This document shows, in pieces, positions 9,679 through 25,238 of a stretch of DNA of 64,000 bases; position 1 is the stretch's first letter, and every line of letters begins with the position of its first letter. The position numbers and the translations under genes are program-made. The notes beneath the pieces are model-generated. The model did not search any database. It was not told the DNA's origin and saw only the letters and a program-made list of their open reading frames with translations. The stretch spans positions 97,075 to 161,074 of the forward strand of contig CAWHHZ010000008.1 of assembly GCA_963829355.1 (NCBI GenBank), given 5' to 3'. Source of the DNA: an uncultured Acidobacteriota bacterium (GTDB lineage: Bacteria; Acidobacteriota; Thermoanaerobaculia; Gp7-AA8; JAHWKK01).

Positions 9679-11186
9679 TGATCGGCGCGGCGCTGGTACT
9701 CGCGCTTCTCCTTACTGACCGCGCCGGGCCGGCTGCGGACGAACGCTTCTCCGAATCGATCTCGGTGACTCGCTACGTCGTGGAAGTCGGAGTCACCGAT
9801 CATGCGGGGCGCGTTGCGGGAGAGCTCGGTCCTTCCGACTTCACCGTCGAAGTGAGCGGAATCCCCGCGAGCGTCGAAAGCGCCTTGTGGTTTGGCTCAG
9901 ACGGTGAGGCCGGGGCTCCGGAACAAGGACGTCACCTCCTGATTTTTCTCCAGTCGGACTTCGCCCGCAATCGAGCGCGCATGCTCGGACACATGACCTT
10001 CGTCAATTCGTTCGCACCTTCAATCGTGGCAATGCTGCGCCCGCACGATGAAGTCGCCGTCGTCTCGTTCGATTCGCATCTGCGCGTGCTGTCGGATTTC
10101 ACGAACGATGGGGACCGGATACTGGCTGCCGTCAAACGCTCTCTCAGCATCGGTGCAGGCGAGGCGGTGGTGGAAGCCGCGTCGGACGGAAGTCTCTCCA
10201 CTGCACTCGAAACGACGAAGAGATCAACCGACGTCGAAGGCGCTCTACTCGACATTGCTCATGCACTGCAGAAGGTGAACGGCGAGAAGGTCGTGATCCT
10301 CGCCGGGTGGGGGTTCGGGGAGACTCTCTGGCGCAAAGGAGGTGGTTCCGGCGTGACACTTCCGGACGCGTGGGGCCGTGCGGTGAAGATCTTCCAGGAC
10401 GAGCGAGTGAGGATCATCACCGTGAGTGCCGACACGGGTCAGCTTTCATACAGTCTGGCGATGTCCTCACGATCTACCGGTGGCGCGTTCGTTTCCTCTG
10501 CGGCGGGCTTCTCCACTCAGTCACTCGCCGTGATCGAAGGAGTCCTGACCGGCCGCTATGAACTGGTGCTGTCGCTTCCGGAAGCGCTCGAACCAGGAAC
10601 GCATGATCTGATGGTCACGGTCGAGGGAGGCCGGCACGTCGTCGCTCCCGCAACGATCGTGGTTCAGAGCTCCAAGGCGGCGTACAGCGAGTCGATTGCG
10701 CTACTGAACGCGGGTCTCGAAGCAGAAGCACTCGCCGCTCTGCAGCAATGGATCGAGAACGATACCCCTGACTCTGATTCTCTTCGTTCGCATCTGGATG
10801 AGCTGGCTCGGGGGGAACAGTGGCGAAGTGCTCTGGCTGTTGCTCTCGAGTTGGAGCGGCGTCACGAACTCGACGACACGACGACGAGAGAACTGATGCA
10901 GGCACGCGCGGGCGTAGAGCGCGCCGACCGTCTGGCGGCGCAGGAACGAATGACAGCCGCGAGACGTGACTTGTTGGAGGGTTCCAGAGAGCTCGCGAAA
11001 GAGCATCTCGACGAGGCGCTGAGGCTCTTCCCTGACTTCGCCGAGGCTCTCTACGAGCGGGGAATGCTTCTTCTTGCTGAAGGGGCCTTGGAGAGTGCAG
11101 CGATCGATCTCGAGAGGTGTCTGCGCCTGGAACCGGCCGGCATGCATTCAACGGATGTCCGCGCTCTGTTGAAACAGATCCGGTAG
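9678..11186 (+). CDS. acidobacterial-type VWA-domain protein (TIGR03436-like N-terminus) with C-terminal TPR repeats
   Basis: 502 aa. The N-terminal 'FSESISVTRYVVEVGVTDHAGRVAGELGPSDFTVEVSGIPASV' pattern is shared with the 1297-aa gene at 38517. TPR-like helices at the C-terminus. TAATG overlap with the upstream gene. Confidence 0.6.
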   Translation: MIGAALVLALLLTDRAGPAADERFSESISVTRYVVEVGVTDHAGRVAGELGPSDFTVEVSGIPASVESALWFGSDGEAGAPEQGRHLLIFLQSDFARNRARMLGHMTFVNSFAPSIVAMLRPHDEVAVVSFDSHLRVLSDFTNDGDRILAAVKRSLSIGAGEAVVEAASDGSLSTALETTKRSTDVEGALLDIAHALQKVNGEKVVILAGWGFGETLWRKGGGSGVTLPDAWGRAVKIFQDERVRIITVSADTGQLSYSLAMSSRSTGGAFVSSAAGFSTQSLAVIEGVLTGRYELVLSLPEALEPGTHDLMVTVEGGRHVVAPATIVVQSSKAAYSESIALLNAGLEAEALAALQQWIENDTPDSDSLRSHLDELARGEQWRSALAVALELERRHELDDTTTRELMQARAGVERADRLAAQERMTAARRDLLEGSRELAKEHLDEALRLFPDFAEALYERGMLLLAEGALESAAIDLERCLRLEPAGMHSTDVRALLKQIR

Positions 11187-11285: not shown

Positions 11286-14200
11286 TCACATCGCGCGGGA
11301 CGCGCGACCCACACCACCTGCATCGAGATCGGGAGGCGATCCACGAGCGTTACGTTGCACCTTGACGGTGTTGTTGCGCCAGGCTGGATCGATCAGCAGG
11401 CGGCGCGGATCGATTCCGGCTGTGCCTGGCTCGAACGGGACGATGATGGTGACCTCGTGGCTGCCGGACGTGATCGGGTGCTGCCGGAGGTACAACAGCC
11501 TCGATCCGGACGCGTCATACACACCGATCTCGACGAGCTCGTTCATTGGCAGCACGGTCTCGGTCCCTTCCTCGTCCACCATCAGCTTCTCGGCGGTCAC
11601 GTCCATCGCAACTCGCCACGAGCCATCAGTGAGAGGTTCCGCGGTTGCCCGTCGCGTGGAAAGATTCCAGTATGTGTTGTGCTCGAACAGATCAGCGAGT
11701 AGGGGATGGATCGACGCGGGCGACACTGCGCGAAGCTCTCGATAGAGATCGAGCGAGGTGGGCAGCGCCCCCTCGGAGCCCGCGTATTGTTGAAGCATCC
11801 TGCGAAGCGCCAGATTCACACGCTCCTCACCGATCATCGTCCGCAGCGTGAACATCGCGAACGGTCCGCGTCGGTATGCGTCGAGCCAGTCACTCGCTGT
11901 CAATAGCGGCGCGTCGGCCATCGGTCGCGGTGCGAGATACGCTTCGCGCATCACGTACAGAAAGCGATCGAGATACTCCTTGCCGAACGTCGCCTCCACC
12001 ACGCCGAACGCGCTGTACCAGGCCAGGCTTTCGCTGAGCAGCGGCCCCCCTTCGACGTCCGCCGGGGTGAGCTGATTTCCCCACCATTGATGCGCGACCT
12101 CGTGTGCGACGACACCAAACAGAAAGTCCACGTCGCGCGGGTCCTTCTCCGGATTCATGAGACTGATCCCCTCGTAGTACCGGATGTTCATCGGATATGC
12201 GCGCAGTCCTGGCGACATCCCCGGCGCCGCGACGAGACGGATCTGGTCGTAGGGGTACGACCCGAACTGGCTCGTGTAGTACGCGAGTGACTCTTTCACG
12301 CTGCGCACCATCCGCTCCACGTTTCGGTCACTTCCCGGATCGTGCACAATCTCGATCTCGACGTCGTTCCATCGTGCCCGCTGCACCGCGTAGCCGGCAG
12401 AGAAGATGGCGTAGAGATTCCGAACCGGAGCGTCCGTCGCGTAGTGAAAGTAGCGGCGGCCATTCGCGCGCCATTCGCGCTGCAACGCACCGGGAGCGAT
12501 CGCAATCTGATCCTCGGCCGTTCCCACGATCACCTCGAGATCAATCATGTCGCGGTCCGCGGTTCGTCTCACGCGAGCATCGCGTTCCTCGAGCGGCGTG
12601 ACTTCCGGCCGCGGCGACAATTGATACGCTTCTCGATCGAACGCCTTCCGCAGACGCCGGTTCTCCTGATAGCCGATCGCAGGAATCCATTCGGTCGGCT
12701 CGAAGTAGGTCGCGCCGGGCAGCACTGCCTTCTGCGTCCCGCTGTTCGTAAATCCTCGCGGATCGTAGGTGATGTCGAAGCTGATATCGAGCTCGTCGCC
12801 CGGGAGCAAAGGGGGCTCAAGAGTGTAGATCGAGTGACCGAGATCGTCGTCCTGGAGCGTCGGGCGAGACGGCCGATCCAACTGCACGTCGCGAGTCTCG
12901 ACTTCCGAGGCAGTCGCCAGATGCAGTGTCTCGATCGGCTGCCCCGTATCGTTGACGAGGCGATACTTCCCATTGATCAGCGCCTTCTGCTCCCGCGGGT
13001 AAAGCTCGACCTCCAGCCGAACCGACTCGAGGCGTGGCTGCGCAACATGCTCGTATTGTCCGTACTTGATTTCGTAGCGCGCTCGCCGCTCTTTGCGCTC
13101 ATTGTCTCCGCGATAGTCGTTGAGGACGTTCGTGTTGTAGAAAATCGTGCCTCCTGCGATCCCCGTGAGCGCCAGGGCTACGGCGACGGTGACCGGAGAG
13201 ACCGATGAGAATCGTCGCCGGGCGCCGCGGAGGCGGACGGCCAGCCCTGGCTGGACCGAGCGCACCCACAGCAGGCGCGCCGCGAACATCAGCAGCAGCG
13301 CCCAGCCAAACCAGTACGCCTTGAAGAGAACGACCGGGCCGAGCGGCGAAAACCCGGTCATTGCGGAGTAGCTCCACCCGGGATCGGAACCGAAGATCAG
13401 GAGCTTGTGCTCGATACCGATCAGAGGCGCCGCGACCGTGAACGCGTAGGCCATGATCGCGATCAGGTACCCGAGGTACTTCTGATTCACGATCACCTGA
13501 ATGGCGATGGCGAGAGCGGCGAAGAGCAGGTAGTCGATCAGTTGATAACCGAAGAGGATCTTCAGGTAGGCCAGCGGGTCCAGACCGGCATGGCCCACTC
13601 TCAACTGGATCGCGATGCTGGTGAGCATCAGGAGTCCCTGAAACAGCGCGATCGCACATCCCAGGCCGAGCAGCTGTCCCCACAGGAATGCGGCATCCGG
13701 CACGGGCAAAGGGTCGACGATCAGGTTCATCCGCGCCTCCCGATCCCGCCAGACGAGCTCACCTGCATAGAGGATCGTGAGCAGGATGACGAGCGAGTCG
13801 TAGTGAAGCGTTGCTACTTTCGCGAGCAGGAGCGGCGTCTCGGGGACGAGAGGGACGCCGACATGCTCCATGAGCTCCGGGCCTGAAACGAAAAGCAGGA
13901 TGAGCGCGGCAACCGGAAGAAGCCAGATGCGGCCGCCGATGATCTGGCGGAACGACATGGCAGCAATCTCGAGCGCTTTGCGGAGTCGCGCGACCAGACC
14001 GAATGAGCGGTTCGCGACGGGGACGACGATCGCGGACTGCCGCGGCGCATCTTTCTCGATTGGCGCGCGCTTCCCCCGTAATCTCCGGGAGCTGCCCGCC
14101 TGCCGGCTGAAGCGAAACCATTGCGGGACGAGACCGAGAACCAGAGCCGTCCCACCGATCCAGAGCACCCGGTTCCAGAGAAGAGCGCCGCCGATCGGAA

Positions 14201-14897
14201 GCCCGAGCGTGCTCCGCTCCGCGGTGCTCCATGTTCGGATAAGGCTCGCGGTAGCCGCGAATCCGAGAGGATCGAGATAGGTAGCCAGAGTCCACTGACC
14301 GAGGACCCCTCCGACGATCGACCAGATCATGATGGAACCGAAGCCGAGCGCGACACTCAAAGTGAGGCCTGCCACCAGACGTTTCGAGAGAAGAGCCGCG
14401 GTGAACAGCAGGACGCCGGTGATGAACAGGTTCGGCAGAACGATGATCACGTACGGCGTCAGATATGACGAGAGCCGGAACGGCACCATGGCCGCGTCCC
14501 CGCGATCGCTGAGACTTACGGCAGTGAATGCTCCCAGAGGAATGAGGCTCAGAATGATCAGGCCGATGAGGAGAGCGCCGAAGAAGCGCCCGAAGACGTA
14601 CTGGCGCTCGCGGACGGAAGAACTGTAGAGCAGGGGCGCCGTGCCTGTCTGTGCATCCCGGCTTCCGGCATCGCCAAACAATGCGGCGAGCGCGACGAGT
14701 CCGAAGAGACTCGTGATCAGGACCGCGTTCAGGATGCTGACGGGAGCATTGATCGGAGTTCCACCCTCACGTGCCGTCGTCATGAAGTTCTGCATCAGGT
14801 AGAACGCGAGCACGTACATCGCCGCCATAAAGATCCACGTCATGCGCTGGCGGAACTGATAGAAGAGCTCGAATCTGATGACCTCGAGAAACTTCAT
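11286..14897 (-). CDS. ABC-2-type permease fused to M1-family zinc metallopeptidase (copy 1)
   Basis: 1203 aa. The N-terminal roughly 550 aa are polytopic ABC-2-permease-like. The C-terminal half is M1 gluzincin: 'VAHEVAHQWWGNQ...LSESLAWY' (HEXXH followed by the downstream Glu). No recognisable GAMEN exopeptidase motif. Homologous end to end with 20223..23795. Confidence 0.8.
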   Translation of the reverse strand: MKFLEVIRFELFYQFRQRMTWIFMAAMYVLAFYLMQNFMTTAREGGTPINAPVSILNAVLITSLFGLVALAALFGDAGSRDAQTGTAPLLYSSSVRERQYVFGRFFGALLIGLIILSLIPLGAFTAVSLSDRGDAAMVPFRLSSYLTPYVIIVLPNLFITGVLLFTAALLSKRLVAGLTLSVALGFGSIMIWSIVGGVLGQWTLATYLDPLGFAATASLIRTWSTAERSTLGLPIGGALLWNRVLWIGGTALVLGLVPQWFRFSRQAGSSRRLRGKRAPIEKDAPRQSAIVVPVANRSFGLVARLRKALEIAAMSFRQIIGGRIWLLPVAALILLFVSGPELMEHVGVPLVPETPLLLAKVATLHYDSLVILLTILYAGELVWRDREARMNLIVDPLPVPDAAFLWGQLLGLGCAIALFQGLLMLTSIAIQLRVGHAGLDPLAYLKILFGYQLIDYLLFAALAIAIQVIVNQKYLGYLIAIMAYAFTVAAPLIGIEHKLLIFGSDPGWSYSAMTGFSPLGPVVLFKAYWFGWALLLMFAARLLWVRSVQPGLAVRLRGARRRFSSVSPVTVAVALALTGIAGGTIFYNTNVLNDYRGDNERKERRARYEIKYGQYEHVAQPRLESVRLEVELYPREQKALINGKYRLVNDTGQPIETLHLATASEVETRDVQLDRPSRPTLQDDDLGHSIYTLEPPLLPGDELDISFDITYDPRGFTNSGTQKAVLPGATYFEPTEWIPAIGYQENRRLRKAFDREAYQLSPRPEVTPLEERDARVRRTADRDMIDLEVIVGTAEDQIAIAPGALQREWRANGRRYFHYATDAPVRNLYAIFSAGYAVQRARWNDVEIEIVHDPGSDRNVERMVRSVKESLAYYTSQFGSYPYDQIRLVAAPGMSPGLRAYPMNIRYYEGISLMNPEKDPRDVDFLFGVVAHEVAHQWWGNQLTPADVEGGPLLSESLAWYSAFGVVEATFGKEYLDRFLYVMREAYLAPRPMADAPLLTASDWLDAYRRGPFAMFTLRTMIGEERVNLALRRMLQQYAGSEGALPTSLDLYRELRAVSPASIHPLLADLFEHNTYWNLSTRRATAEPLTDGSWRVAMDVTAEKLMVDEEGTETVLPMNELVEIGVYDASGSRLLYLRQHPITSGSHEVTIIVPFEPGTAGIDPRRLLIDPAWRNNTVKVQRNARGSPPDLDAGGVGRASRAM

Positions 14898-14970
14898 GCC
14901 TCACCACCGGATTGTGGTTCGGGAGGGCGAGACGCCTGCCGGGCATGAGCATACGGGGGCGTCAAAATCT

Positions 14971-15934
14971 TCATTCTGTGCCGCCTTTGCGGAGGGCTGG
15001 AGCCCTCTGCGAGTCGTCCCTGGAGGGACGACCCCCAAGTCCGGACATCGTGCAGAAGTAGACGTCCTCGAGATCGGGCTCAACCTCTTCGAAGCCGGCA
15101 CCGGGGGGGCTGTTGCTGAAGACGTGCGCAACGGTACGTCCCGCGAGGAGCTTCGTCGAGATCACCTCGTGCTCGCGCTCGATCGCCTCGAGCTCTTCCT
15201 TGCTGATGATCGTGCGCCAGATGCGGCCGCGAAGCTCGTCCACGGCACCGAGCGGCTCCGCTTCCAGAAGAATTCGCCCCTTGTTGATGATTGCCATACG
15301 GGTACAGAGCTCGGAGACGTCCTCGACGATGTGGGTCGAAAGAATGACGACGCTGTTTTCACCGAGCTCACTGAGCAGATTGAGGAAGCGGACACGCTCC
15401 GCGGGATCGAGCCCCGCGGTCGGCTCGTCGACGATCAGGAGTTTCGGGTTGCCGAGCAAAGCCACGGCGACACCGAACCTCTGCCGCATACCGCCCGAAT
15501 AGCCGCCTAGTTTCTGCTTCCGGACGTCCCAAAGGTTCGTCTGCCGGAGCAGTGCCTCGACGACACCTTTTCGCTCGCCGCGGTTGATGATCCCTTTGAG
15601 AATCGCGAAGTGATCGAGCAGCTTCTCCGCGCTCACCTTCGAGTAGACCCCGAACTCCTGCGGAAGATAGCCGAGTGTCTTCCTCAGCTCGTCCTTCTGC
15701 CGCACGACGTCGATCTCTGCCGAGCCACGCTCCCCCGCTGTCGGGCTCCTGGAGCGTGGCAAGCGTCCGCATCAGCGTCGACTTGCCCGCGCCATTCGGA
15801 CCAAGTAGCCCGAACATGCCGCGCGGAATGGTCAATGAAACATCCTTCAGTGCCTCGACTCCGTTCGAGTAGGTCTTCGAAAGATTGTCGATGCGGAGCT
15901 CGAGAGGTCGTGGTGCGAGTGCCGGTTCAGCCAT
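14971..15934 (-). pseudogene. ABC transporter ATP-binding protein (copy 1), 1-nt frameshift in a C5/G5 homopolymer at 15732-15736
   Basis: The Walker A frame ('MAEPALAPRPLELRIDNLSKTY...GPNGAGKST...LQEPDSG') starts at the ATG at 15932-15934. The remainder ('EIDVVRQKDE...LSGGM...LLIVDEPTAGLD') is in ORF 14971..15762. Alignment with paralog 19130..20065 places an extra G in 'GACAGCGGGGGAGCG'. Confidence 0.75.
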
Positions 15935-16367
15935 GTTCGTCCTTTCATTTCCGAAATTCGCCTGCACTGGGGTACTACGTGGCGCCAACCATTCGGGTGT
16001 ACGAGGTGGGACGAAACCCCGATTTGACGTGACGGAGCCATGGCCGCACACGGTGAGGAGACAGCCGCAGTCGGGCCTGAACGAACGTGACTGGCATACT
16101 CGGGTGTCAATGAGGACGCGACGATCCTGGCACATTGTCTGGATGACGACGGCCCCGAGGAATTCGCGGAACAAACGCATCGTCGTCACCGGCCAGCGTC
16201 GTGCTGGCGGTTCGAGCTTCGAGACAAATTCATCCCGCCCGTCGCAGAGTTCGTCCCGCCAACGCGCCCTTACCGCAACTCCTGCCCTCGGGAGGAGCCC
16301 GAGTCTGGAATGCTGAGTTTCATGACGGAGACTCCACAGTCTGATGAGACTTGCCACCGACAGTCCC

Positions 16368-17573
16368 TCAAAGGCGGTCGATGACCAGCTGGGGGTCGAG
16401 CGCAGAGTCCGATGTATGAGTGGGCTTCCCCGCGCGGCCATGAACGTTCCCTCTCTCCTGTGGGATGAGAACCTCGCTCACCACGGCTCCGTCCTCGGAT
16501 CGCAGCTTCATCCACGCATCGTGTCCATAAAGGAGCTCGAGACGCCTTCGGGTGGACGAAAGCCCCACCCCCGTACCCGCGGGAGTTGTGATGCGTCGTG
16601 GAACAGGTCCGCGATCGATCACCTGCAACCGAAGCGATTCTCCATCGCCGAAGACCCGGACGACGATCTCTGCACGATCTCCGTCGGCCAGCGCGCCATG
16701 CTTGATGGCATTCTCCACCAGGGGCTGGAGCAGGAGAGGCGGAACGGGAATCTCCAGCAGATCATCGCCCGCCTCGAAGATGAACGTGAGGCGATCCCCG
16801 AACCGCATCTTCATCAGCTCGAGATAATCGTTCGCGATCCCGAGCTCCTCCGAGAGTGGAATCAGCGCAGCGGTGCGGATCTCCAGGCTCCGACGCAGGA
16901 GCTGGCTGAGCGTCATCAGCATTCTTTCTGCACTCTCCGGGTCGGCTTGAACGAGCGCGATGATCCCGTTGAGAGCATTGAACAGAAAGTGCGGCTGAAG
17001 GTCGGCCCTCAACTGTCGCAATTGAGCGCGATTGACCTCGGCTTCCAACTCCGTGGCAATCCGCTCGCGCTCGCGATTCTCACCCTGTACTCGCATCACG
17101 TTGGCGAGAGCGACGAGCCCCACCACAATCGCGATGTTCATGTCCAGCCGGAGCAGCCATGCCGCGACGACCTCTCTGGAATTCCAGAAAGTGCCCTGCA
17201 GAAGCTGTGAGATCACGGTGCCGATGACTTCCCTGCCGAGAGCGAGCAGAATGATGACTGGAATCAGAGTGAGTACCCTTCGCAGCCGATACGGCCTCTG
17301 AACCGGAAGTCGGTAGGCGATGAAGACGACGACCGGCGTGAGCACTGCCCACATCGCGCCTCGGATCAATCCGAGAAGAGCGGCGTCAGTCGGATGCACA
17401 TTGATCGTGCTGAAGGCGTCGAGCTTCCAGAACTCGATGCCGGTGACGAGCAGGCCACCGATCACCCAGAGCCCGAAGATCGTCAGGGCCTTGATCAAGA
17501 GATCGAAAAGTCTTGTGTGGAGCCGAGTCATCACATCTTCACGAGCTCGACAACAATGGGGGTCACCGGCCAT
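16368..17573 (-). CDS. LytS-type sensor histidine kinase (His_kinase/HATPase_c); probable start at Met15 (17531)
   Basis: Multi-TM N-terminus, then 'HFLFNALNGIIALV' (LytS/YehU-type H-box) and an ATPase domain 'LVENAIKHG...GTGVGL'. Confidence 0.8.
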   Translation of the reverse strand: MAGDPHCCRAREDVMTRLHTRLFDLLIKALTIFGLWVIGGLLVTGIEFWKLDAFSTINVHPTDAALLGLIRGAMWAVLTPVVVFIAYRLPVQRPYRLRRVLTLIPVIILLALGREVIGTVISQLLQGTFWNSREVVAAWLLRLDMNIAIVVGLVALANVMRVQGENRERERIATELEAEVNRAQLRQLRADLQPHFLFNALNGIIALVQADPESAERMLMTLSQLLRRSLEIRTAALIPLSEELGIANDYLELMKMRFGDRLTFIFEAGDDLLEIPVPPLLLQPLVENAIKHGALADGDRAEIVVRVFGDGESLRLQVIDRGPVPRRITTPAGTGVGLSSTRRRLELLYGHDAWMKLRSEDGAVVSEVLIPQERGNVHGRAGKPTHTSDSALDPQLVIDRL

Positions 17574-17690
17574 GTTTCACGAGGCCCTTCGTGTCATCCC
17601 GAGCACCCTTTATCCCAAAATGCCGGCCTCACGCATGCCAGACGGCTATCGGGGGAAATACTGGCGCGTGTCGGTCGGTAGTGGCCAGCG

Positions 17691-18422
17691 ATGCGTTTAT
17701 TGATCGTAGATGACGAACCGCTGGCTCGAATGCGAATTCGTGCACTCCTCTCCGAGGAAGTCGACGTAGAAGTCGTCGGCGAGGGGACCGATGGTCGCGA
17801 GGCAGTTTCACTCGTTCGCGAGTCGTCTCCGGACGTGCTCCTTCTCGACGTGCAGATGCCGCGAGGCAGCGGGTTCGACGTTCTTGATCGCCTGGGGGAA
17901 GCGCGTCCTCCCGTCATCATATTCACAACGGCTCACTCCGAGTTCGGTGCGCGGGCCTTCGATTTCAGCGCGACCGATTACCTCGTCAAACCGTTCGATC
18001 GTCAACGCGTACGACAAGCACTCGATCGCGCGCGCCGTCGCCTTGCTGGCGAGCCGGCGGAGCGTGGGGCAGTGTCCAGGGCGGCCTGGAAAGATCGGTT
18101 CGCGGTCCGAGTTCGTGGCCGGATCATCTTTGTCCGGACCTCAGAAATCGTCTGGATCGGGGCCGAAGGCAACTACGTTCGACTCCATACCGCGACTGGA
18201 TCGTATCTCGAACGCGATTCGATGAAGCACCTCGAGAGCTCGCTCGACCCGTCCTCATTTCTTCGTGTCCACAGATCGGCAATCGTCAGCGTCGAGCACA
18301 TCGTATCGATCGACTCGACATCCGACGGCTCGCTGCAGATCCAGATGTCCAGTGGTGAACGGGTGCCCCTGGGACCGAATTACCGAAAGAATCTTCAGGA
18401 CCTCGCCGGTACTCGGTTCTGA
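17691..18422 (+). CDS. LytTR-family response regulator
   Basis: Receiver domain 'MRLLIVDDEPLARMRIRALL...LLLDVQMP', then a LytTR DNA-binding domain ('FLRVHRSAIVSVEHI'). Divergent from the kinase gene. Confidence 0.85.
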   Translation: MRLLIVDDEPLARMRIRALLSEEVDVEVVGEGTDGREAVSLVRESSPDVLLLDVQMPRGSGFDVLDRLGEARPPVIIFTTAHSEFGARAFDFSATDYLVKPFDRQRVRQALDRARRRLAGEPAERGAVSRAAWKDRFAVRVRGRIIFVRTSEIVWIGAEGNYVRLHTATGSYLERDSMKHLESSLDPSSFLRVHRSAIVSVEHIVSIDSTSDGSLQIQMSSGERVPLGPNYRKNLQDLAGTRF

Positions 18423-18445
18423 GTCACGCCGCCCCAGGAGACAAC

Positions 18446-18763
18446 ATGATCGAGAACGAAACGACTGACCCTGTACCGATGATGATCACCTACCGGGCGA
18501 AAAAGGGCCACGAAGCTGCGCTTCTTCAGCTCGTGAGAAGCCACTGGCCCGTGATCAGAGATCTGGGGCTCGCCAGCACCACGCCGGCGCGCATATGGAA
18601 GACCACCGACCGCGACGGAAATGTCGCGTTCGTCGAGATGTTCGAGTGGCGCGACTCTTCGGCGCCGGACGTAGCTCACCAGACACCGGAGGTGATGGCG
18701 GTCTGGGAGCCGATGTCTGAGGTCATGGAGAGCATCGAGATCGCGCAGGCCGAGCTGCTCTGA
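18446..18763 (+). CDS. ABM-domain (antibiotic-biosynthesis-monooxygenase-like) small protein
   Basis: 105 aa. The ferredoxin-like ABM pattern ('MITYRAKKGHEAALLQLVRSHW...FVEMFEWRDSSAPDVAHQTPEVMAVW') lies 23 bp downstream of the LytTR gene. Confidence 0.45.
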   Translation: MIENETTDPVPMMITYRAKKGHEAALLQLVRSHWPVIRDLGLASTTPARIWKTTDRDGNVAFVEMFEWRDSSAPDVAHQTPEVMAVWEPMSEVMESIEIAQAELL

Positions 18764-19129
18764 GAACGAAATCGCCGCTTTCGTATGGCTGGTAAGCGCT
18801 CCACTCTCTGGCCCTGCGTGAAACAAGGGAGACGGGTGATCACGCCCCCACGTCTTTTGCCGGGAGGCGTACGCACGAAACGGCCAAAGCGACGGGCTGT
18901 CCTGCAGAGCTGACTTCAGCCTCCCGCCCGTCCCATGGACGACTCTCTCGGGATGAGTCGATCCCCACGCGGTGCGGACTCTCACCTCACTCGCACCATC
19001 TACAACGAGCGGATCGCGAGGTTCGAAGCTTTTTGTCACATCGACAAGGCACCTTCGTCACCAATTCTCGAACCCTATGCAACGGCGTCCGTATCCCTCG
19101 AGACAAAGTGACCATCTCAGGGGAGATCA

Positions 19130-20065
19130 ATGGACGACACTGACTGGACGAACGGCATGGAGCTTCGGATCGAGCATCTATCCAAAACCTACGGGAATGG
19201 TGTGAGAGCGCTCGATGACGTCACCCTGACGATCCCCCGCGGGATGTATGGATTACTGGGACCGAATGGCGCCGGGAAGTCGACGCTGATGCGCACGATC
19301 GCGACACTTCAGGAGCCGGATCAAGGTGAGATCCACCTCGGGACGATCGATGTCGTTCGCCAGAAAGACGAGGTTCGGAAAACACTCGGGTACCTGCCAC
19401 AGGAGTTCGGGGTGTACGCGAAGGTCAGCGCGATCTCCCTGCTCGACCACTTTGCAATCCTGAAGGGGATCACGAACCGTGGCGAAAGGAAGGACGTGGT
19501 CGAGGCGCTGTTGCGGCAGACGAACCTGTGGGGCGTCCGAAAGCAGAAACTCGGCGGCTACTCAGGCGGAATGAAGCAGCGCTTCGGCGTCGCCGTCGCT
19601 CTCATCGGGGACCCGAAGCTCCTCATCGTCGACGAGCCGACGGCCGGACTCGATCCTGCCGAGCGAGTGCGCTTTCTCAATCTCCTCAGCGAGCTCGGAG
19701 AGAACAGCGTCGTCATTCTCTCGACGCACATCGTCGAGGACGTCTCCGAGTTGTGCACACGCATGGCGATCATCAGCCGTGGGCGGATCCTGCTCGAGAC
19801 CGAGCCACTGCGTGCCGTCGCAGATCTGGAAGGGTCGATCTGGCGAGCGATCATCTCGCGCACCGATCTCAAGGCGATCGAGCGCGAGCAGGCGGTGATC
19901 TCCACAAAACTGCTCGCCGGCCGGACAGTTGTCCACGTGTTCAGCAACACCAGCCCCGGCGCCGGTTTTGAGCCGGTCACCCCGGACCTCGAGGACGTGT
20001 ACTTCAGCGCCATGACCGGACAGATCGGCCGGCTCGATGAGCCGTATACGGTAGTCATCTCATGA
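19130..20065 (+). CDS. ABC transporter ATP-binding protein (copy 2, intact)
   Basis: Walker A 'GPNGAGKST', signature 'YSGGMKQR' and Walker B 'LLIVDEPTAGLD'. About 85% identical to the frameshifted copy 1. Confidence 0.85.
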   Translation: MDDTDWTNGMELRIEHLSKTYGNGVRALDDVTLTIPRGMYGLLGPNGAGKSTLMRTIATLQEPDQGEIHLGTIDVVRQKDEVRKTLGYLPQEFGVYAKVSAISLLDHFAILKGITNRGERKDVVEALLRQTNLWGVRKQKLGGYSGGMKQRFGVAVALIGDPKLLIVDEPTAGLDPAERVRFLNLLSELGENSVVILSTHIVEDVSELCTRMAIISRGRILLETEPLRAVADLEGSIWRAIISRTDLKAIEREQAVISTKLLAGRTVVHVFSNTSPGAGFEPVTPDLEDVYFSAMTGQIGRLDEPYTVVIS

Positions 20066-20222
20066 TCAGCACGCGTCCGACAACTCATCTCGAGCCCAGC
20101 CCCAGCCGCGTCGGTGCGCTTCAGGGAAGCGTTCGCAAGCCAGCCATCGTACGAGCTCCCGCTACGCTGCACGATCCGGATGCAGCGGAATCTCGCGTGT
20201 CCGTCGCGGCGGAGGTGGTGCG

Positions 20223-23200
20223 ATGAGAAAGATGCTGGAGGTGTTCCGTTTCGAGCTTACCTACCAGTTGCGGCGTCTCTCGACGCTGGTCTATTTCGTC
20301 ATCGTTCTCGGCCTCTGCATCATGCTCATGCAGGTGATGGCCGAGGAGGAAACGTACTTCAATGCGCCCTACGTCGTCACGGTTGCGGTGGTGGTGGGGA
20401 GCCTGCTCGCGCTGCTGATCGTCGCCGCCTTCGCCGGGGACGCCGCGACACGGGACATCGAAGAGCGGATGCACCCGCTCTTCTACAGCTCACCCGTGGG
20501 GAAGGGCGCGTATCTGAGCGGGCGCTTCCTGGGAGCATTCGTCGTCAGCGCACTCGTCTTCTCCGCTCTTCCTTTCGGTGCACTCGTGGCGACGTGGATG
20601 CCGGGAGTCGAGCCGGAGACACTCGCCCCCTTCAGCGTCTCGGTGTATGTCGTGCCGTACCTTCTCTTTGCGCTGCCGAACGCATTCGTCGCGACAGCCT
20701 TGATGTTCGGTCTCGCGACGCTCACGCGCCGGTCGATCGCGAGCTATGCAGGTGCCGCGTTTCTCTTCTTCTTCTCCATGGTGTGCGGAAAACTCGTGGC
20801 GCCGCAGGTTGGCTGGAGCGTCGGAAAGCTACTCGATCCGATAGGCTACGCGACTGTCTGGGAGTTGTGGTTGTCGCTGAATCCGATCCAGAAGAACACG
20901 TTCGTTCTGACCCTGGATATGGCGCTGCTCAGAAATCGTCTGCTCTGGATCGGTTTGGGACTGGCGGTTCTCGGTGTGACGTATGCCCGGTTTCGATTCG
21001 CACACGGAGCCGCCTCCCGGCGACGAACATGGATTCGGCGGCAGCCGGCGGAGGTCGATGATCACGTCCGCCGGGAAGCCATCGCGGTACCGCCGACGAG
21101 ACGAGTCTTCGACGTCTCGACCCGCGCGCGGCAACTGCTCACGATCACGACACGCTCGTTCCGCGACCTTCATACGAGCCGGGTGTGGTGGATCGTTCCC
21201 CTGGTGGTCATCTTCTTTTTGTTGAATGCGCCGGAGCTGACGACGCTGGAGATGGGAACCCCCGGACCGATGACCACGGCACGCCTCCTGGGGTTCGTCA
21301 GTGGGGACGTGTCGGTGTTGCTGACGATCCTGATCGCCCTGCTCGCCGGAGAGCTCGTCTGGCGCGAGCGCGACTCGCGTCTTCATCCGCTTACCGACGT
21401 CACTCCGGTACCTGGATGGATTCCGGTGGCGGGCAAGTTCCTCGCTCTCGCCCTGATGCTCGCCGTAACCCTCGGCATCTTCCTCCTCGCAGGCGTCTAC
21501 CTGCAGACGGGCGTCGGTAGCGATCGAGTCGATCTGGCACTCTACGTTCAGGTCCTGTACGGACTCCAACTACCCGAATATCTGCTGATCGCCGCGCTTG
21601 CAATCGTGATTCACGTCGTGGTGAATCAGAAGTACGTCGCGAACGCCATCCTCGTGCTCCTTCCCGTCGTGAGAGAACACATCGGAGTCGACAGGCTTCT
21701 GCTCTACGGCAGTCTTCCGAAATGGGGGCACTCAGCGATCTCCGGTTTTGGTCCGGGCGTCGAAGCACGACTCTGGTTTACTCTCTACTTCGGCGGATGG
21801 GCGCTGCTCTTTGTGGTGGTGAGTCATCTCTTCTGGATCCGAGGCGAGGGAGGTGGCCTGAGGCGTAGAGGCGCGATCGCCCGGCGGCGCATGACGCGGG
21901 CGGCCGCCATGCTCGGCGCCGCCGGCCTTGCAACGATTGCCGGCGCCGGTGGCTTCATCCTCTACCAAACTTATATTCGGAACGAGTCTCCGTCGGCTGC
22001 CCGGATCGAGCAGCGGCGCGCGGAGTACGAGCGTCGCTACGGGCACTACGCGTCCCTCCCCCAGCCGGTTCCAACGGGGACGAAGCTACAGGTCGATTTC
22101 TACCCCCGTCGAGGCGAGGCCATGATTCGCGGGAGCTATCGTCTCGAGAATCGCAGCAACACGGCGATCGACGCGATCCATGTCGCCATCGCGGACGCGG
22201 CCAAAACGACCGTGGTGTCTTTCGATCGCGCCTCACGCGCGACGCTTACCGACGACGCGATGGAGTACAGGATCTACGCGCTCGATCAGGCGCTTGAAGC
22301 GGGCGAGTCGCTGCGTATGGATTTCGAGGTCGGTATCGAGACCAATGTGTTCAGCGATTACGTCCTCCCTCCAGCCGTGCGGAATGGTTCGGTGATCACA
22401 CACAAGCCGCGAGACGGTCAACATTGGCTGCCAATCATCGGATATCAGACGTTTCGGGAGCTCGACAGCGCCGTCCTGCGCAAGAAGTACGGACTTCCTG
22501 AACGCCCGCCTTACCCACATCTCGGTGACAACCCTGTCGGCAATGAGCAGAAGGGGTATGAACAGGTCCAGCTCGAGACGATCGTCGGCACCGACGCCGG
22601 TCAGATCGGCGTTGCCCCCGGGGAGTTGCGCCGAACGTGGACCGAGAATGGTCGCCGCTATACCCACTACGCCACCGACGCACCGATCAGCAACGCCTGG
22701 GCGATCACCTCTGCGGACTATGCGGTGCACCGCGCCGAGTGGACGTCACCGTCCGGCGAGACGGTCGACATCGAGATCTTTCACCACCCGACACACACGG
22801 CGAATCTCGAGCGAATGGAGCACAGCGCGAAGGCTTCGCTCGATTACAACACGAAGCAGTTCGGCCCGTACCCGTACCGACAGCTCCGGTTTGTGGAAAC
22901 ACCGAGCGCATCGTTCTGGCTGGGGATGAGTGCGTACAGCGGTCTGATCACGTTCCAGGAGGGCTTCTCACTCCTTAGGCCCGAAGATGACTCGCGAGCG
23001 ATCGATTTCCCGTTCGCCGTGGTAGCCCACGAAGTGGGACATCAGTGGTGGGGGCATCAGCTCACGCCGGCCCTCGTCGAAGGCGCGGCGTTTCTGGCGG
23101 AGAGTCTCTCCTGGTACAGCGGCATGCTCGTGGTGGAGGAGACCTTCGGCCGCGAGCATCTGCAGCGAATCCTCGACATGATGCGCGCGCAATACATGGG

Positions 23201-23795
23201 GCCGCACCAGCCGCGTGAGGTCCCGCTGCTTCGTGCCGTCGAGCAACTCGACGCCTATCGGGTGGGGCCGTTCGCGATGTACGCCCTGCGTGAAGCCGTC
23301 AGTGTCGACACTGTGAACGACGCACTGCGGAACCTGCTCGCGAAGTTCCCGCCGGGACGCGCACCGTACCCGACGACGCTCGACTTCTACGCGGAGCTGC
23401 GCACCGCGACTCCCCCCTCGATGCACTGGCTTCTGAAGGATCTATTCGAAGAGATCACGTTCTGGGATCTTCGTGCGAAGGGCATGGAGGTCGAGAGGGC
23501 GGAGACCGGTGGTCATCGCGTGAAATTCGAGGTGGAGGCTCAGAAGCTGAAGGGTGATGAAACAGGGACTGAGCGAGTCGTCCCCATGAACGATCCGGTC
23601 GAGGTGGTCTTCTACGACGGGGATGGCGATGCTGTCTACCGAAGGTCTCATCGCCTTCGCTCGGGAGCGCAGACGATCGAGGTCACCGTCGCTCGTCCTC
23701 CCGTGCGTGCGGCGCTCGATCCCGACCACGAGTTGCTGGATCGGAACACGGACGACAACGCGGTCGCGATCGGCAACGGGGCTCGCAATGAGTGA
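20223..23795 (+). CDS. ABC-2-type permease fused to M1-family zinc metallopeptidase (copy 2)
   Basis: 1190 aa. The N-terminus 'MLEVFRFELTYQLRR' parallels copy 1's 'MKFLEVIRFELFYQFRQ'. M1 motif 'VVAHEVGHQWWGHQ...LAESLSWY'. No GAMEN. Confidence 0.8.
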   Translation: MRKMLEVFRFELTYQLRRLSTLVYFVIVLGLCIMLMQVMAEEETYFNAPYVVTVAVVVGSLLALLIVAAFAGDAATRDIEERMHPLFYSSPVGKGAYLSGRFLGAFVVSALVFSALPFGALVATWMPGVEPETLAPFSVSVYVVPYLLFALPNAFVATALMFGLATLTRRSIASYAGAAFLFFFSMVCGKLVAPQVGWSVGKLLDPIGYATVWELWLSLNPIQKNTFVLTLDMALLRNRLLWIGLGLAVLGVTYARFRFAHGAASRRRTWIRRQPAEVDDHVRREAIAVPPTRRVFDVSTRARQLLTITTRSFRDLHTSRVWWIVPLVVIFFLLNAPELTTLEMGTPGPMTTARLLGFVSGDVSVLLTILIALLAGELVWRERDSRLHPLTDVTPVPGWIPVAGKFLALALMLAVTLGIFLLAGVYLQTGVGSDRVDLALYVQVLYGLQLPEYLLIAALAIVIHVVVNQKYVANAILVLLPVVREHIGVDRLLLYGSLPKWGHSAISGFGPGVEARLWFTLYFGGWALLFVVVSHLFWIRGEGGGLRRRGAIARRRMTRAAAMLGAAGLATIAGAGGFILYQTYIRNESPSAARIEQRRAEYERRYGHYASLPQPVPTGTKLQVDFYPRRGEAMIRGSYRLENRSNTAIDAIHVAIADAAKTTVVSFDRASRATLTDDAMEYRIYALDQALEAGESLRMDFEVGIETNVFSDYVLPPAVRNGSVITHKPRDGQHWLPIIGYQTFRELDSAVLRKKYGLPERPPYPHLGDNPVGNEQKGYEQVQLETIVGTDAGQIGVAPGELRRTWTENGRRYTHYATDAPISNAWAITSADYAVHRAEWTSPSGETVDIEIFHHPTHTANLERMEHSAKASLDYNTKQFGPYPYRQLRFVETPSASFWLGMSAYSGLITFQEGFSLLRPEDDSRAIDFPFAVVAHEVGHQWWGHQLTPALVEGAAFLAESLSWYSGMLVVEETFGREHLQRILDMMRAQYMGPHQPREVPLLRAVEQLDAYRVGPFAMYALREAVSVDTVNDALRNLLAKFPPGRAPYPTTLDFYAELRTATPPSMHWLLKDLFEEITFWDLRAKGMEVERAETGGHRVKFEVEAQKLKGDETGTERVVPMNDPVEVVFYDGDGDAVYRRSHRLRSGAQTIEVTVARPPVRAALDPDHELLDRNTDDNAVAIGNGARNE

Positions 23796-24031
23796 TCGAA
23801 AGGACGAAGCCGAAGGTGCTCATTGGGTGACGCACCTCCCCGGCCTGCCTCGAAACCGGAACCGGCCGGGACGTTCGCGACGCGTCCTCACTCGAGCGCA
23901 AGCTCGATCGCCTTTTCCAGATCCTCGTCGCTTCCCGCGGCGACGCCAGCAATCGTTCGTGTGACTTCGACGTGAGGGATCAGACCCACCCGCTGAATTG
24001 ACGTCCGTCGGCATGGCGGACATCCATAGCG

Positions 24032-24302
24032 GTGAACATGATCAGATTCTCACCGGGCAGCCTCGTGAAGCTGACGTTCCCGTTGGAGCCGGAGGTCGAT
24101 GACCTCGATCGAGCGGCGGCTGACGAAGCCGTTCTATCGGATTCATCGTTCCACGATCGTCAATGCAGACGCCGTTCACGAGGTCGAAACCGATCGTGCC
24201 GGCACGACCGCGGTGATTCTCAAAGACGGTACCCGACTCAGCTCGAGTACCTCCTACCGCGACAGCGTGGAGGCAATGCTGGAGGATTCAACTAGCTTCT
24301 GA
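24032..24302 (+). pseudogene. LytTR DNA-binding domain remnant (C-terminal fragment, receiver domain absent, internal frameshift)
   Basis: ORF 24099..24302 has 'TKPFYRIHRSTIVNADAVHEV...ILKDGTRLSSSTSYRDS' (a LytTR core). The upstream 'SLVKLTFPLEPEV' is in another frame. There is no room for a receiver domain before the stop of the preceding gene at 23795. Confidence 0.5.
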
Positions 24303-24312
24303 GTGGCCGTAG

Positions 24313-25238
24313 ATAGGGGTAGGGAGAGGCCCTTAGTTAGGCCTCCCCCTCCCTCCGAACCGGACGTGCGGATCTCCCGCATCCGGCTCTCCGGTTGGTG
24401 AGTTACCTGCGATAGGGCTGTCGGACGTTCGCGTGTTCTGCGCTGAGGATGAACAGACCGCGATCGGCAAAGAAGCGGTTGGGCCAGCGATAATGGTCGT
24501 GTCCTCGTCCACTGCGACGGCGGTGAGAGCGTCGGAACTTGCGTCTGCTCAGCACCGCCCGAAGGCGATACCGAACGTACTGATCAAGCTGCGTGAACGC
24601 ACCGCGTGAGCTGTGTTTGAAGAACGCGAACCATCCTCGCAGGACCGTTGCCTCCTTTGACCCCTCTTTCGAGGGCTTCCAGCATGCGTTCGGTCCAGAC
24701 TCGGGCTTCGACCCATGGCCATCGGCCTCGGATCTCTCCGCCGCGCTCTAGGTCTCCCACTGCTCGCGGTTGGTCTTGCTCTTGTCTGTCTGTCACGCAT
24801 TCACCTTCCTGCCCTCCTTTGCTCCACGCCCGTTACGACGCTTCCCAGCTCTTATGAGGGCTCTGACTTCCCGCCCACGGTCATCCGCCGCGGCGGGGGA
24901 TCCCCGGTTCACTACACTCGAACTTCCTACCGTTCTGTCTCCAACCACACCCATGACTCCCTCGGTCGCTTTCTCTTCACGCTCTTTCCCTCAGCGCCAG
25001 GGCTCTCCCTTAGGGCCGTTTCCCGTCTGCACCCACCGGGTCTTCGGGCTTCGGACAAACCCCGCAGCCTCGCCAGTCATAAATGCCGAATCGAGTTTCT
25101 CTCGTACGGACCGGTAGTTCACCTCCAGTTGCTCTCCACCCCGCCTTACGGCGACGCAGTTACTTTCGGTTGTCAGCCAGTGAGCGGCTGGCTGGAAGGG
25201 ACTCTCACCCTTCTGTTCAAGTGCGCTCCCGAGCGCAC
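24313..25238 (-). mobile_element. group II intron (about 926 nt) with internally deleted intron-encoded protein
   Basis: On the minus strand, the 5' end is GTGCG at 25238. Domain V is GAGCCGGATGCGGGAGATCCGCACGTCCGGTTC at 24389..24357. Domain VI is a helix GGGAGGGGGAGGCC/GGCCTCTCCCTACCCC with a bulged A at 24320, 7 nt from the 3' end '...CUAU' (24313). The IEP remnant at about 24440..24796 has 'RVWTERMLEALERGVKGG' (RT domain-0 N-terminus) joined directly to 'RGWFAFFKHSSRGAFTQLDQYVRYRLRAVLSRRKFRRSHRRRSGRGHDHYRWPNRFFADRGLFILSAEHA' (domain X / C-terminus), with the RT core missing. Confidence 0.75.
24357..24389 (-). ncRNA. group II intron catalytic domain V
   Basis: 33-nt hairpin with the AGC triad and two-nucleotide bulge. 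It matches the bacterial DV consensus GAGCCGUAUGCG...CGCACGUACGGUUC at 30 of 33 positions. Confidence 0.8.

Follow-up and report, generated by a model that had tools for sequence, protein, structure and literature searches.

We analysed a 64,000-nucleotide stretch of DNA (the window) from an uncultured Acidobacteriota bacterium of the class Thermoanaerobaculia (contig CAWHHZ010000008.1, positions 97,075 to 161,074); its named homologues point to the same class. The window contains two ATP-binding cassette (ABC) transporter modules, each with an ATPase gene (atp1, atp2) and a gene coding for a permease fused to an M1-type peptidase (fus1, fus2), placed around a two-component pair. According to the open reading frame (ORF) calls, seven genes lie between positions 11286 and 23795, three of them on the minus strand reading leftwards and four on the plus strand reading rightwards (Table 1). 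This is the layout given in an original prediction, made by a model from the sequence alone, of two ATPase–fusion modules on opposite strands around a kinase and a regulator. The kinase and regulator genes were divergent, as predicted, yet the kinase was found to be co-directional with module 1 (atp1 and fus1) and the regulator with module 2 (atp2 and fus2), and each half of the pair heads one arm of the locus. A Logan contig from run ERR11718636 was 100% identical to window positions 15807-24171, with zero differences. Since this contig is independent, the central part of the locus is not an assembly chimera.

Table 1. Features of the transporter–peptidase locus, in window coordinates
Feature	Position	Strand	Residues	Remarks
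fus1	11286-14897	-		ORF, 1203 aa; ABC-2 permease::M1 peptidase fusion
fus1, M1-type peptidase module	11289-13136	-	~588-1203	
fus1, HEVAH zinc motif	12090-12104	-	H932, E933, H936	BLASTP alignment with fus2; columns invariant in the family
fus1, duplicated ABC-2 permease	13137-14897	-	~1-587	
atp1	15934 down to 14971	-		ABC ATPase gene split across two frames
atp1, frameshift site	15715-15718	-		AGAG, four bases for three expected; between ...WLG and IDVV...
Spacer, kinase stop to atp1 start	15935-16367	-		433 bp; presumed module 1 promoter region
Sensor histidine kinase	16368-17573	-		Pfam and transmembrane scan
Kinase/regulator intergenic region	17574-17690			117 bp; divergent
Response regulator	17691-18422	+		REC + LytTR (Pfam)
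105-aa gene	18446-18763	+		small conserved family
Spacer 5' of atp2	18764-19129	+		366 bp
Terminator-like hairpin	19010-19025	+		in the spacer upstream of atp2
atp2	19130-20065	+		intact ABC ATPase, 311 aa; ABC_tran 101.9 bits
fus2	20223-23795	+		ORF, 1190 aa; ABC-2 permease::M1 peptidase fusion
fus2, transmembrane helices 1-12		+	1-540	two ABC-2 repeats
fus2, transmembrane helix 13	20223-21980 (permease through helix 13)	+	559-586	
fus2, M1 module	21990-23792	+	~590-1190	
fus2, GMSAY	22923-22937	+	901-905	at the GAMEN position; hmmsearch alignment to ERAP2, column profile
fus2, HEVGH...E	23028-23102	+	936-940, E960	zinc ligands and general base; ERAP2 active-site alignment
fus2, catalytic-type Tyr	23256-23258	+	Y1012	
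LytTR relic	24099-24299	+		last ~65 residues of the domain only; jackhmmer E 1e-17; about 300 bp 3' of fus2
Truncated group II intron 3' end	24313-24747	-		domain V/VI; RF00029, 58.2 bits vs gathering score 40

Fold and topology of the fusion proteins

Hydropathy analysis predicted 13 transmembrane (TM) helices in fus2. The two six-helix halves formed by the first 12 are alike, and the same R-[DE]-rich motif follows the second helix of each. Counts of Lys plus Arg in alternating loops were 5, 4, 2, 16, 4 and 8 versus 0, 0, 2, 1, 1 and 4, that is, ∼ 40 in the predicted cytoplasmic loops against ∼ 8 in the outside loops. The N-terminus of fus2 is accordingly predicted to be cytoplasmic and everything after helix 13 (residue ∼ 586) to lie outside, which puts the M1 domain outside the cytoplasm, as had been supposed.

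The ABC2_membrane models of Pfam scored 24.8, 23.3 and 20.2 bits on fus2, just under their cut-offs (27.2-31.6), and gave no match to fus1. A confident AlphaFold model of the fusion built from 66 homologues (predicted local distance difference test, 85.8; predicted template modelling score, 0.83) has the six-helix TM-domain fold of NosY, PmtD, ABCG and Wzm. NosY is the closest structural relative of the permease, and the true exporters ABCG, PmtD and Rv1217c are among the strong matches. On the basis of these structural matches, the permease has the type V (ABC-2) exporter fold. A cognate ATPase gene adjoins the permease gene, as expected of an ABC-2 exporter.

The ∼ 600 C-terminal columns of the model aligned to ERAP2, PfA-M1 and PepN (Foldseek, E about 1e-19). 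The model ends with a beta-sandwich (residues 1078-1165) and contains no domain IV. As modelled, the outer module has domains I-III of an M1 peptidase and is devoid of the helical lid domain IV.

Active site of the peptidase module

Both fusions exceeded the Peptidase_M1 cut-off of 27.7 bits (fus1, 35.7; fus2, 32.2), so the predicted M1 assignment held up under a profile search. In the 66 homologues, H936, E937, H940 and E960 (fus2 numbering) were invariant and Y1012 was present in 64; fus1 holds all the invariant family residues. Selection therefore acts on the catalytic machinery. The spacer between HEXXH and the distal Glu is 19 residues long, compared with 18 in the M1 family. The GAMEN position reads G[LM][TH][AS][HFY], with neither Glu nor Asn in any of the 66, and residues 902-905 of fus2 form a beta-strand in the structure model. 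The column profile therefore bears out the original observation that the zinc ligands are kept and GAMEN is gone.

The GAMEN glutamate of M1 aminopeptidases anchors the free N-terminus of the substrate. Because this glutamate is lost and domain IV is missing from the model, the M1 module is expected to be an open-cleft endo- or oligopeptidase and not an aminopeptidase. The module was compared with PepN, ERAP1/2, PfA-M1 and the two-domain M1 enzyme of Deinococcus radiodurans (PDB 6a8z). Judging by the model and the alignments, it has in common with them the N-terminal beta domain, the thermolysin-like catalytic domain, the beta-sandwich and the HEXXH...E + Tyr residues; it differs in its replaced GAMEN, the 19-residue spacer and the lack of domain IV in the model, and it is predicted to be membrane-tethered and periplasmic. 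The family belongs to the M1 fold, yet the name aminopeptidase is probably misplaced.

The ATPases and the frameshift in atp1

ABC_tran was clear in both ATPases, in the case of atp1 on the C-terminal piece. The nearest NCBIfam models of atp2 were DrrA and GldA, and atp2 shared 83% of its residues with atp1 in the repaired form (query P0130). The atp1 gene is split into an N-terminal frame with Walker A and a C-terminal frame that corresponds to a 263-aa ORF (14971-15762). Deleting any single base between the frames restores a 320-residue atp1 with no other defect.

A frameshift was part of the original prediction, which placed it in a homopolymer. We located the site by aligning about 85 cognate ATPases and by three-frame translation. 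After Walker A, the ATPases of the family agree on LQEPD.G.I.LG.[IL]DV[VL].QK. The upstream frame of atp1, LQEPDSGGAWLG, fits this consensus through the G5 run at 15732-15736 and up to 15719 ('...PDSGGAWLG'); the downstream frame fits from IDVVRQK (15714) onwards. The shift thus maps to the AGAG in between, which is flanked by 'ggc' (15721-15719) and 'atc' (15714-15712). The G5 run, considered as the site, was rejected after the alignment. The frameshift itself stands, and its homopolymer location does not. With the extra base outside any repeat tract and the G5 run in frame, the suggestion that the gene is phase-variable is unsupported. The window has 72 runs of at least five G or C.

The extra base could be either a true mutation or an assembly error. 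The Logan contig begins at 15807 and so stops short of the site. The sole entry from this contig for atp1 in the protein database is a 244-aa fragment (P0124), the database contains no intact, 100%-identical atp1, and neither fus1 nor the ATPase fragment had a match when looked up as an exact sequence. If the frameshift is true, atp2 could plausibly serve both permeases. We propose such sharing because atp1 is frameshifted, and consider it plausible because operons in which two tandem fusions (44-54% identical) follow a single ATPase gene were found in four other loci (L021, L048, L054 and L076).

The cognate ATPases were 72-78% identical to atp2 in every phylum, compared with about 40% for the fusions; this conservation covers Acidobacteriota, Bacteroidota, Gemmatimonadota, Myxococcota and Chloroflexota (loci L002-L081). 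Judging by these identities, the constraint on the ATPase appears unusually strong for an ABC ATPase.

The fusion family and the history of the two paralogues

We scanned 1.84 billion cluster representatives for the fusion family. At least 1582 clusters at 50% identity reached E ≤ 1e-30. Of the 150 best matches, nearly all aligned with fus2 end to end over ∼ 1200 aa, at identities down to 28%, and the fused architecture appears from these alignments to be old and stable. The family extends over Acidobacteriota, Bacteroidota, Gemmatimonadota, Rhodothermota, Myxococcota and Chloroflexota; the recorded carriers are mostly soil-type genera and metagenome-assembled genomes. They are protein-degrading organisms. 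NCBI already uses the protein name 'ABC transporter permease/M1 family aminopeptidase', and named homologues from Archangium and Hymenobacter were 45-46% identical to fus2 over 99% of its length. These records have the same architecture and length as the fusions described here, and they carry no function, topology, regulation or loss of GAMEN. Because the architecture is already named in the databases, what this locus adds is a new arrangement within a known but uncharacterised family.

By BLASTP, fus1 and fus2 were 40% identical over their full length. The nearest relatives in other genomes were closer than this, at up to 72% identity for fus2 and about 48% for fus1. A recent duplication was rejected on these grounds, and the description of the pair as being in mid-divergence falls with it; the sequences indicate instead that fus1 and fus2 are ancient paralogues. 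Pairs of fusions at 30-54% identity were present in seven other loci, four of which are those with a single ATPase gene before the tandem fusions. The 40% identity together with the recurrence of pairs elsewhere therefore identifies the locus as an inverted form of a recurrent two-paralogue arrangement and not as a diverging duplicate.

A distant branch, likewise of full length and with about 29-30% identity to fus1 and fus2, occurs at L008:3571-7200 and L064:2775-6125, in the same loci as standard members. The fusion family thus has deeper subfamilies.

The two-component pair and the regulatory regions

The kinase matched His_kinase (PF06580, 85.4 bits) and HATPase_c (31.1 bits), and its sensor part consists of four TM helices with loops of at most 23 aa. 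Neither a 5TMR_LYT domain (Pfam) nor an NCBIfam model matched the kinase. The regulator matched REC (87.4 bits) and LytTR (86.1 bits); the best NCBIfam model was BtsR, at 155 bits versus a cut-off of 246, and LytR scored 136 versus 375. The pair is therefore of the LytS/LytTR type in its domain content but not by 5TMR_LYT or at equivalog level. It shares the PF06580 + HATPase_c kinase core and the REC + LytTR regulator with LytSR, BtsSR and YpdAB. Unlike these systems, it has four short-looped helices without 5TMR_LYT, and its kinase and regulator are transcribed divergently. All linked kinases that we checked elsewhere had 4-8 TM helices, short loops and no large external sensor domain.

LytTR boxes were sought in the window by a repeat search, a sigma-70 scan and a search for GTCAC-N15-19-GTCAC, and nothing exceeded chance. 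In the 433-bp spacer, neither a shared motif nor a sigma-70 match was significant. The 366-bp spacer upstream of atp2 has a GTCAC-N17-GTCAC repeat (19035-19061), which was not significant (3 found versus 1.04 expected). Within the locus, Rfam detected no known RNA element other than the group II intron end, which lies outside the modules.

A non-coding block of ∼ 150 nucleotides is highly conserved in the divergent kinase/ATPase gap of Bacteroidota (L046:8829-9045 and 14 other loci; alignment A3). It spans Cytophagales, Chitinophagales and Sphingobacteriales, and its conserved strings include ACAAAGATATTTTTTCC, ATCTACGAA, TTGGTCGATTAC and GCATATCG. Stop codons interrupt every frame of the block, Rfam gave no match to it, and its consensus fold is weak (-4 kcal/mol, two covarying pairs); on these grounds a gene and a structured RNA were both rejected. 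The block probably serves these loci as a common promoter and binding region for the regulator.

Neighbourhoods of related loci

We fetched 80 genomic loci, searched their ORFs with profiles seeded from the window proteins and clustered the flanking ORFs. An ATPase gene lay directly upstream of the fusion in 74 of the 75 loci for which that flank was available. A LytTR regulator was found in 27 of the 80 loci and a PF06580 kinase in 26. Linkage of the pair to the operon depended on the taxon. Of the 26 Bacteroidota loci, 21 had the pair within 1 kb, in 17 cases upstream and divergent and in 4 cases downstream; in this phylum the regulator–kinase/ATPase–fusion unit of four genes stands alone. 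The pair was that close in 1 of 17 Acidobacteriota loci outside Thermoanaerobaculia, a Blastocatellia locus, and in none of the 23 loci of Thermoanaerobaculia, the class of the host. Four more loci, from Gemmatimonadota, Rhodothermota and Thermoanaerobaculia, had the pair within 10 kb. The predicted linkage of such fusions to LytSR-type pairs is thus real in Bacteroidota and missing from adjacent positions in the host's own class, so that regulation by the pair would be a local arrangement. Of the two outcomes that the original prediction named as refuting it, a failed M1 profile match and no linkage elsewhere, neither occurred.

In fus2-type loci of Thermoanaerobaculia, a PadR gene and then a gene for a ∼ 258-aa polytopic membrane protein precede the ATPase gene (L002-L005, L008, L009, L014 and L017, eight loci, and L084:7834-9011). 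These two genes occupy the place held in the window by the LytTR regulator and the small gene. In the nearest relative, the fus2 orthologue stands alone behind PadR.

Besides the ATPase, the recurrent neighbours were regulators and one hydrolase only. The hydrolase, a serine hydrolase with Beta-lactamase and DUF3471 domains, was present in 17 of the 80 loci, from several phyla (L054, L077, L080, L048, L014, L067, L044 and ten others). It directly adjoined the operon in about 8 and, in four phyla, was situated between the two-component pair and the ATPase gene. No precursor peptide, modification enzyme, biosynthesis or immunity gene was recurrent among the 80 loci, which argues against a role in the production of a peptide signal or a bacteriocin. 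PADLOC returned generic ABC-ATPase similarities only, and anti-phage defence was rejected for this reason.

A second ABC ATPase subfamily (Walker A region GAGKSTTLKVLMNLER...) was encoded about 1-3 kb upstream of the cognate ATPase in eight loci of Acidobacteriota, Gemmatimonadota and Myxococcota (L008, L030, L036, L045, L051, L053, L073 and L075), which suggests that another ABC system travels with the fusion operon.

The small gene and the edges of the locus

The 105-aa gene had been described as ABM-like. In a profile search at the sequence level, it gave no Pfam match even at E = 10, the ABM profile included. The sole pointer towards that family is the label 'quinol monooxygenase YgiN' given by JGI to some of its 227 homologues. 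The gene was absent from all 80 related loci and is for this reason probably a passenger. Elsewhere, two of its close homologues precede an HTH_20 regulator; given these neighbours, we rejected it as a part of the system.

The right-hand junction of the locus is rearranged. The LytTR relic found there is nearest to the fusion-linked regulators of L077, L014 and L080 (tblastn E 6e-9 to 1e-6), and its best relatives are in Blastocatellia, Thermoanaerobaculia and Gemmatimonadota loci. The end of the group II intron abuts the relic. Upstream of the intron end on the same strand, a 114-aa ORF (24406-24747) with LRGWxxFF...RWPNRFF, read by eye, is presumably the C-terminus of a maturase; no reverse transcriptase region was evident upstream of this ORF. 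Such a rearrangement is in keeping with a replacement, at this locus, of a PadR-type regulator by the two-component pair. At the other edge, two genes with VWA and TPR domains (714 and 502 aa; 7534-11186, plus strand) lie directly to the left of fus1.

Discussion

We propose that the locus encodes an inducible 'extract and destroy' defence against membrane-active or hydrophobic peptides, and put the probability of this reading at roughly 40%. Two complete ABC-2 (type V) transporters are encoded, each with a permease polypeptide of two times six helices, a 13th helix and a zinc metallopeptidase of ∼ 600 residues that is predicted to be periplasmic. The highly conserved ATPase encoded directly upstream would power each transporter, and the kinase/LytTR pair would presumably switch the modules on upon a signal at the membrane. 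The transporter could then expel a membrane-active or hydrophobic peptide, or a lipopeptide, from the membrane or the cytoplasm, and the tethered open-cleft endopeptidase would cleave it at the exit.

Four considerations lead us to this proposal. The permease has an exporter fold that includes a likeness to PmtD, which exports amphipathic peptides and protects against them (PMC12623860). Both features that make M1 enzymes exopeptidases appear to be lost. Regulators and transporters form a self-contained unit without biosynthesis genes. Finally, clusters of a resistance protein, an ABC transporter and a two-component system in Firmicutes provide a precedent (PMC5583591, PMC9169098).

The known systems resemble the locus in part. 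BceB and NsrP are FtsX-type (type VII) permeases that operate with OmpR-type regulators, whereas we find an ABC-2 fold, a LytTR regulator and a fused M1 metalloenzyme; neither the FtsX-type 10-TM permease of Bce-type systems, with its large extracellular domain, nor their OmpR-type regulator is encoded at the locus. NSR is a membrane-tethered, nisin-cleaving protease, a separate protein of the serine (S41) type. The logic of BceAB–BceRS and of NSR with NsrFP and NsrRK is nevertheless like that of the fusion locus (PMC9169098, PMC7038271, PMC5583591): in both, the ABC transporter has an extracytoplasmic module and is accompanied by a response regulator and a kinase that lacks an external sensor domain. 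The nsr cluster of S. agalactiae combines NSR with an ABC transporter and a two-component system (PMC5583591), and it is NSR that we liken to the tethered protease described here. PmtCD exports amphipathic peptides and gives the producer immunity (PMC12623860). Unlike the fusions, PmtCD (PDB 6xjh) comes from Firmicutes, has separate permease subunits and is without a peptidase domain.

In peptidase-containing ABC transporters (PCATs), a type IV exporter that includes its own ATPase domain bears a C39 cysteine peptidase at the N-terminus, in the cytoplasm. PCATs are like the fusions in that a peptidase is part of the transporter polypeptide. The fusions differ from PCATs in their C-terminal, periplasmic metallopeptidase, type V permease and separate ATPase, and no locus protein matched Peptidase_C39 in Pfam.

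Several points weigh against the proposed defence. NosY, the closest structural relative of the permease, serves cofactor assembly with a periplasmic partner and not peptide export. The placement of the peptidase outside the cytoplasm comes from hydropathy and the positive-inside rule only. The pair, to which we ascribe induction, adjoins the operon in none of the 23 loci of the host's class, and the two module promoters (15935-16367 and 18764-19129) share no LytTR-type repeat above chance. The recurrent serine hydrolase may just as well indicate that cell-wall or D-amino-acid peptides are turned over. The substrate is not readable from the sequence, and we found no paper and no experimental or expression study of the fusion family in the literature.

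The main rival is that the ABC part moves no substrate and that ATP hydrolysis switches the tethered peptidase between inactive and active states, in the way that NosFY acts on NosD and FtsEX on periplasmic cell-wall hydrolases. NosD serves copper-sulfide cluster assembly; it is a separate beta-helix protein, and NosY is a 6-TM homodimer. Compared with NosDFY (PDB 7o0y), the halves are fused in our proteins, which bear an M1 peptidase as their covalently joined periplasmic module. The classic cases of such mechanotransmission, FtsEX, MacB and LolCDE, have a different (type VII) fold, and the structural matches that include NosY are also strong for ABCG, PmtD and Rv1217c, which are true exporters. 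We consider this alternative unlikely, but it deserves to be taken seriously.

A role in envelope peptide turnover or nutrition is a more doubtful one. Here, the M1 module and the serine hydrolase would together degrade cell-wall or environmental peptides, possibly containing D-amino acids, while the ABC part would handle a hydrophobic product or anchor the enzyme. The recurrence of the hydrolase beside fusion operons and the soil-type genera and metagenome-assembled genomes among the carriers are in keeping with it. ABC-2 systems, however, are exporters and not importers, the window has no serine hydrolase or peptide-uptake gene beside the modules, and regulators that sense the membrane fit stress better than nutrition.

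Compatible with any of these readings is the view that module 1 is decaying, that the inverted pair is a by-product of rearrangement and that only module 2 functions, so that the symmetry has no functional meaning. The frameshift in atp1, the relic and truncated intron at the right-hand junction, and the lone fus2 orthologue behind PadR in the nearest relative all speak for it. On the other hand, the fus1 ORF is of full length and keeps every invariant residue, the only lesion in atp1 is a single base that may be an assembly error, and other loci also combine two fusions with one ATPase. On balance, we think it improbable.

Export-coupled maturation, in which the cell would export its own bacteriocin or signal precursor for the M1 domain to trim the leader outside, as a trans-side counterpart of PCATs with the LytTR pair as a quorum circuit, has in its favour the PmtD-like fold, the predicted position of the peptidase on the exit side and the control of bacteriocin and peptide-pheromone loci by LytTR regulators in Firmicutes, but is very improbable in view of the 80 loci, which have no conserved small precursor, modification enzyme or immunity gene, of the four-gene unit that stands alone in Bacteroidota, and of the replacement of the pair by PadR in close relatives.

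The 'extract and destroy' defence proposed for this locus can be extended to the family, though on somewhat more tentative terms. The fusions may be an unstudied, phylum-spanning envelope machine in which an ATP-driven exporter feeds or gates a tethered endopeptidase, that is, a one-polypeptide 'extract and shred' type of resistance to membrane-active peptides in Gram-negative soil bacteria, under the control of membrane-embedded sensors (LytTR pairs in Bacteroidota, PadR with a membrane protein in Thermoanaerobaculia).

Taken singly, ABC exporters, M1 peptidases and LytTR systems are familiar; for a transporter that carries its own periplasmic metallopeptidase we found no study. The family includes culturable hosts (Pontibacter, Dyadobacter, Hymenobacter and Mucilaginibacter) with a compact unit of four genes. 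Should 'export and destroy' prove right, the fusions would give environmental Gram-negative bacteria an intrinsic resistance to peptide antibiotics that is new in type. Should gating prove right, they would add a new case in which ATP controls proteolysis on the far side of the cytoplasmic membrane. On both readings, 'aminopeptidase' is probably a misleading name for the database entries.

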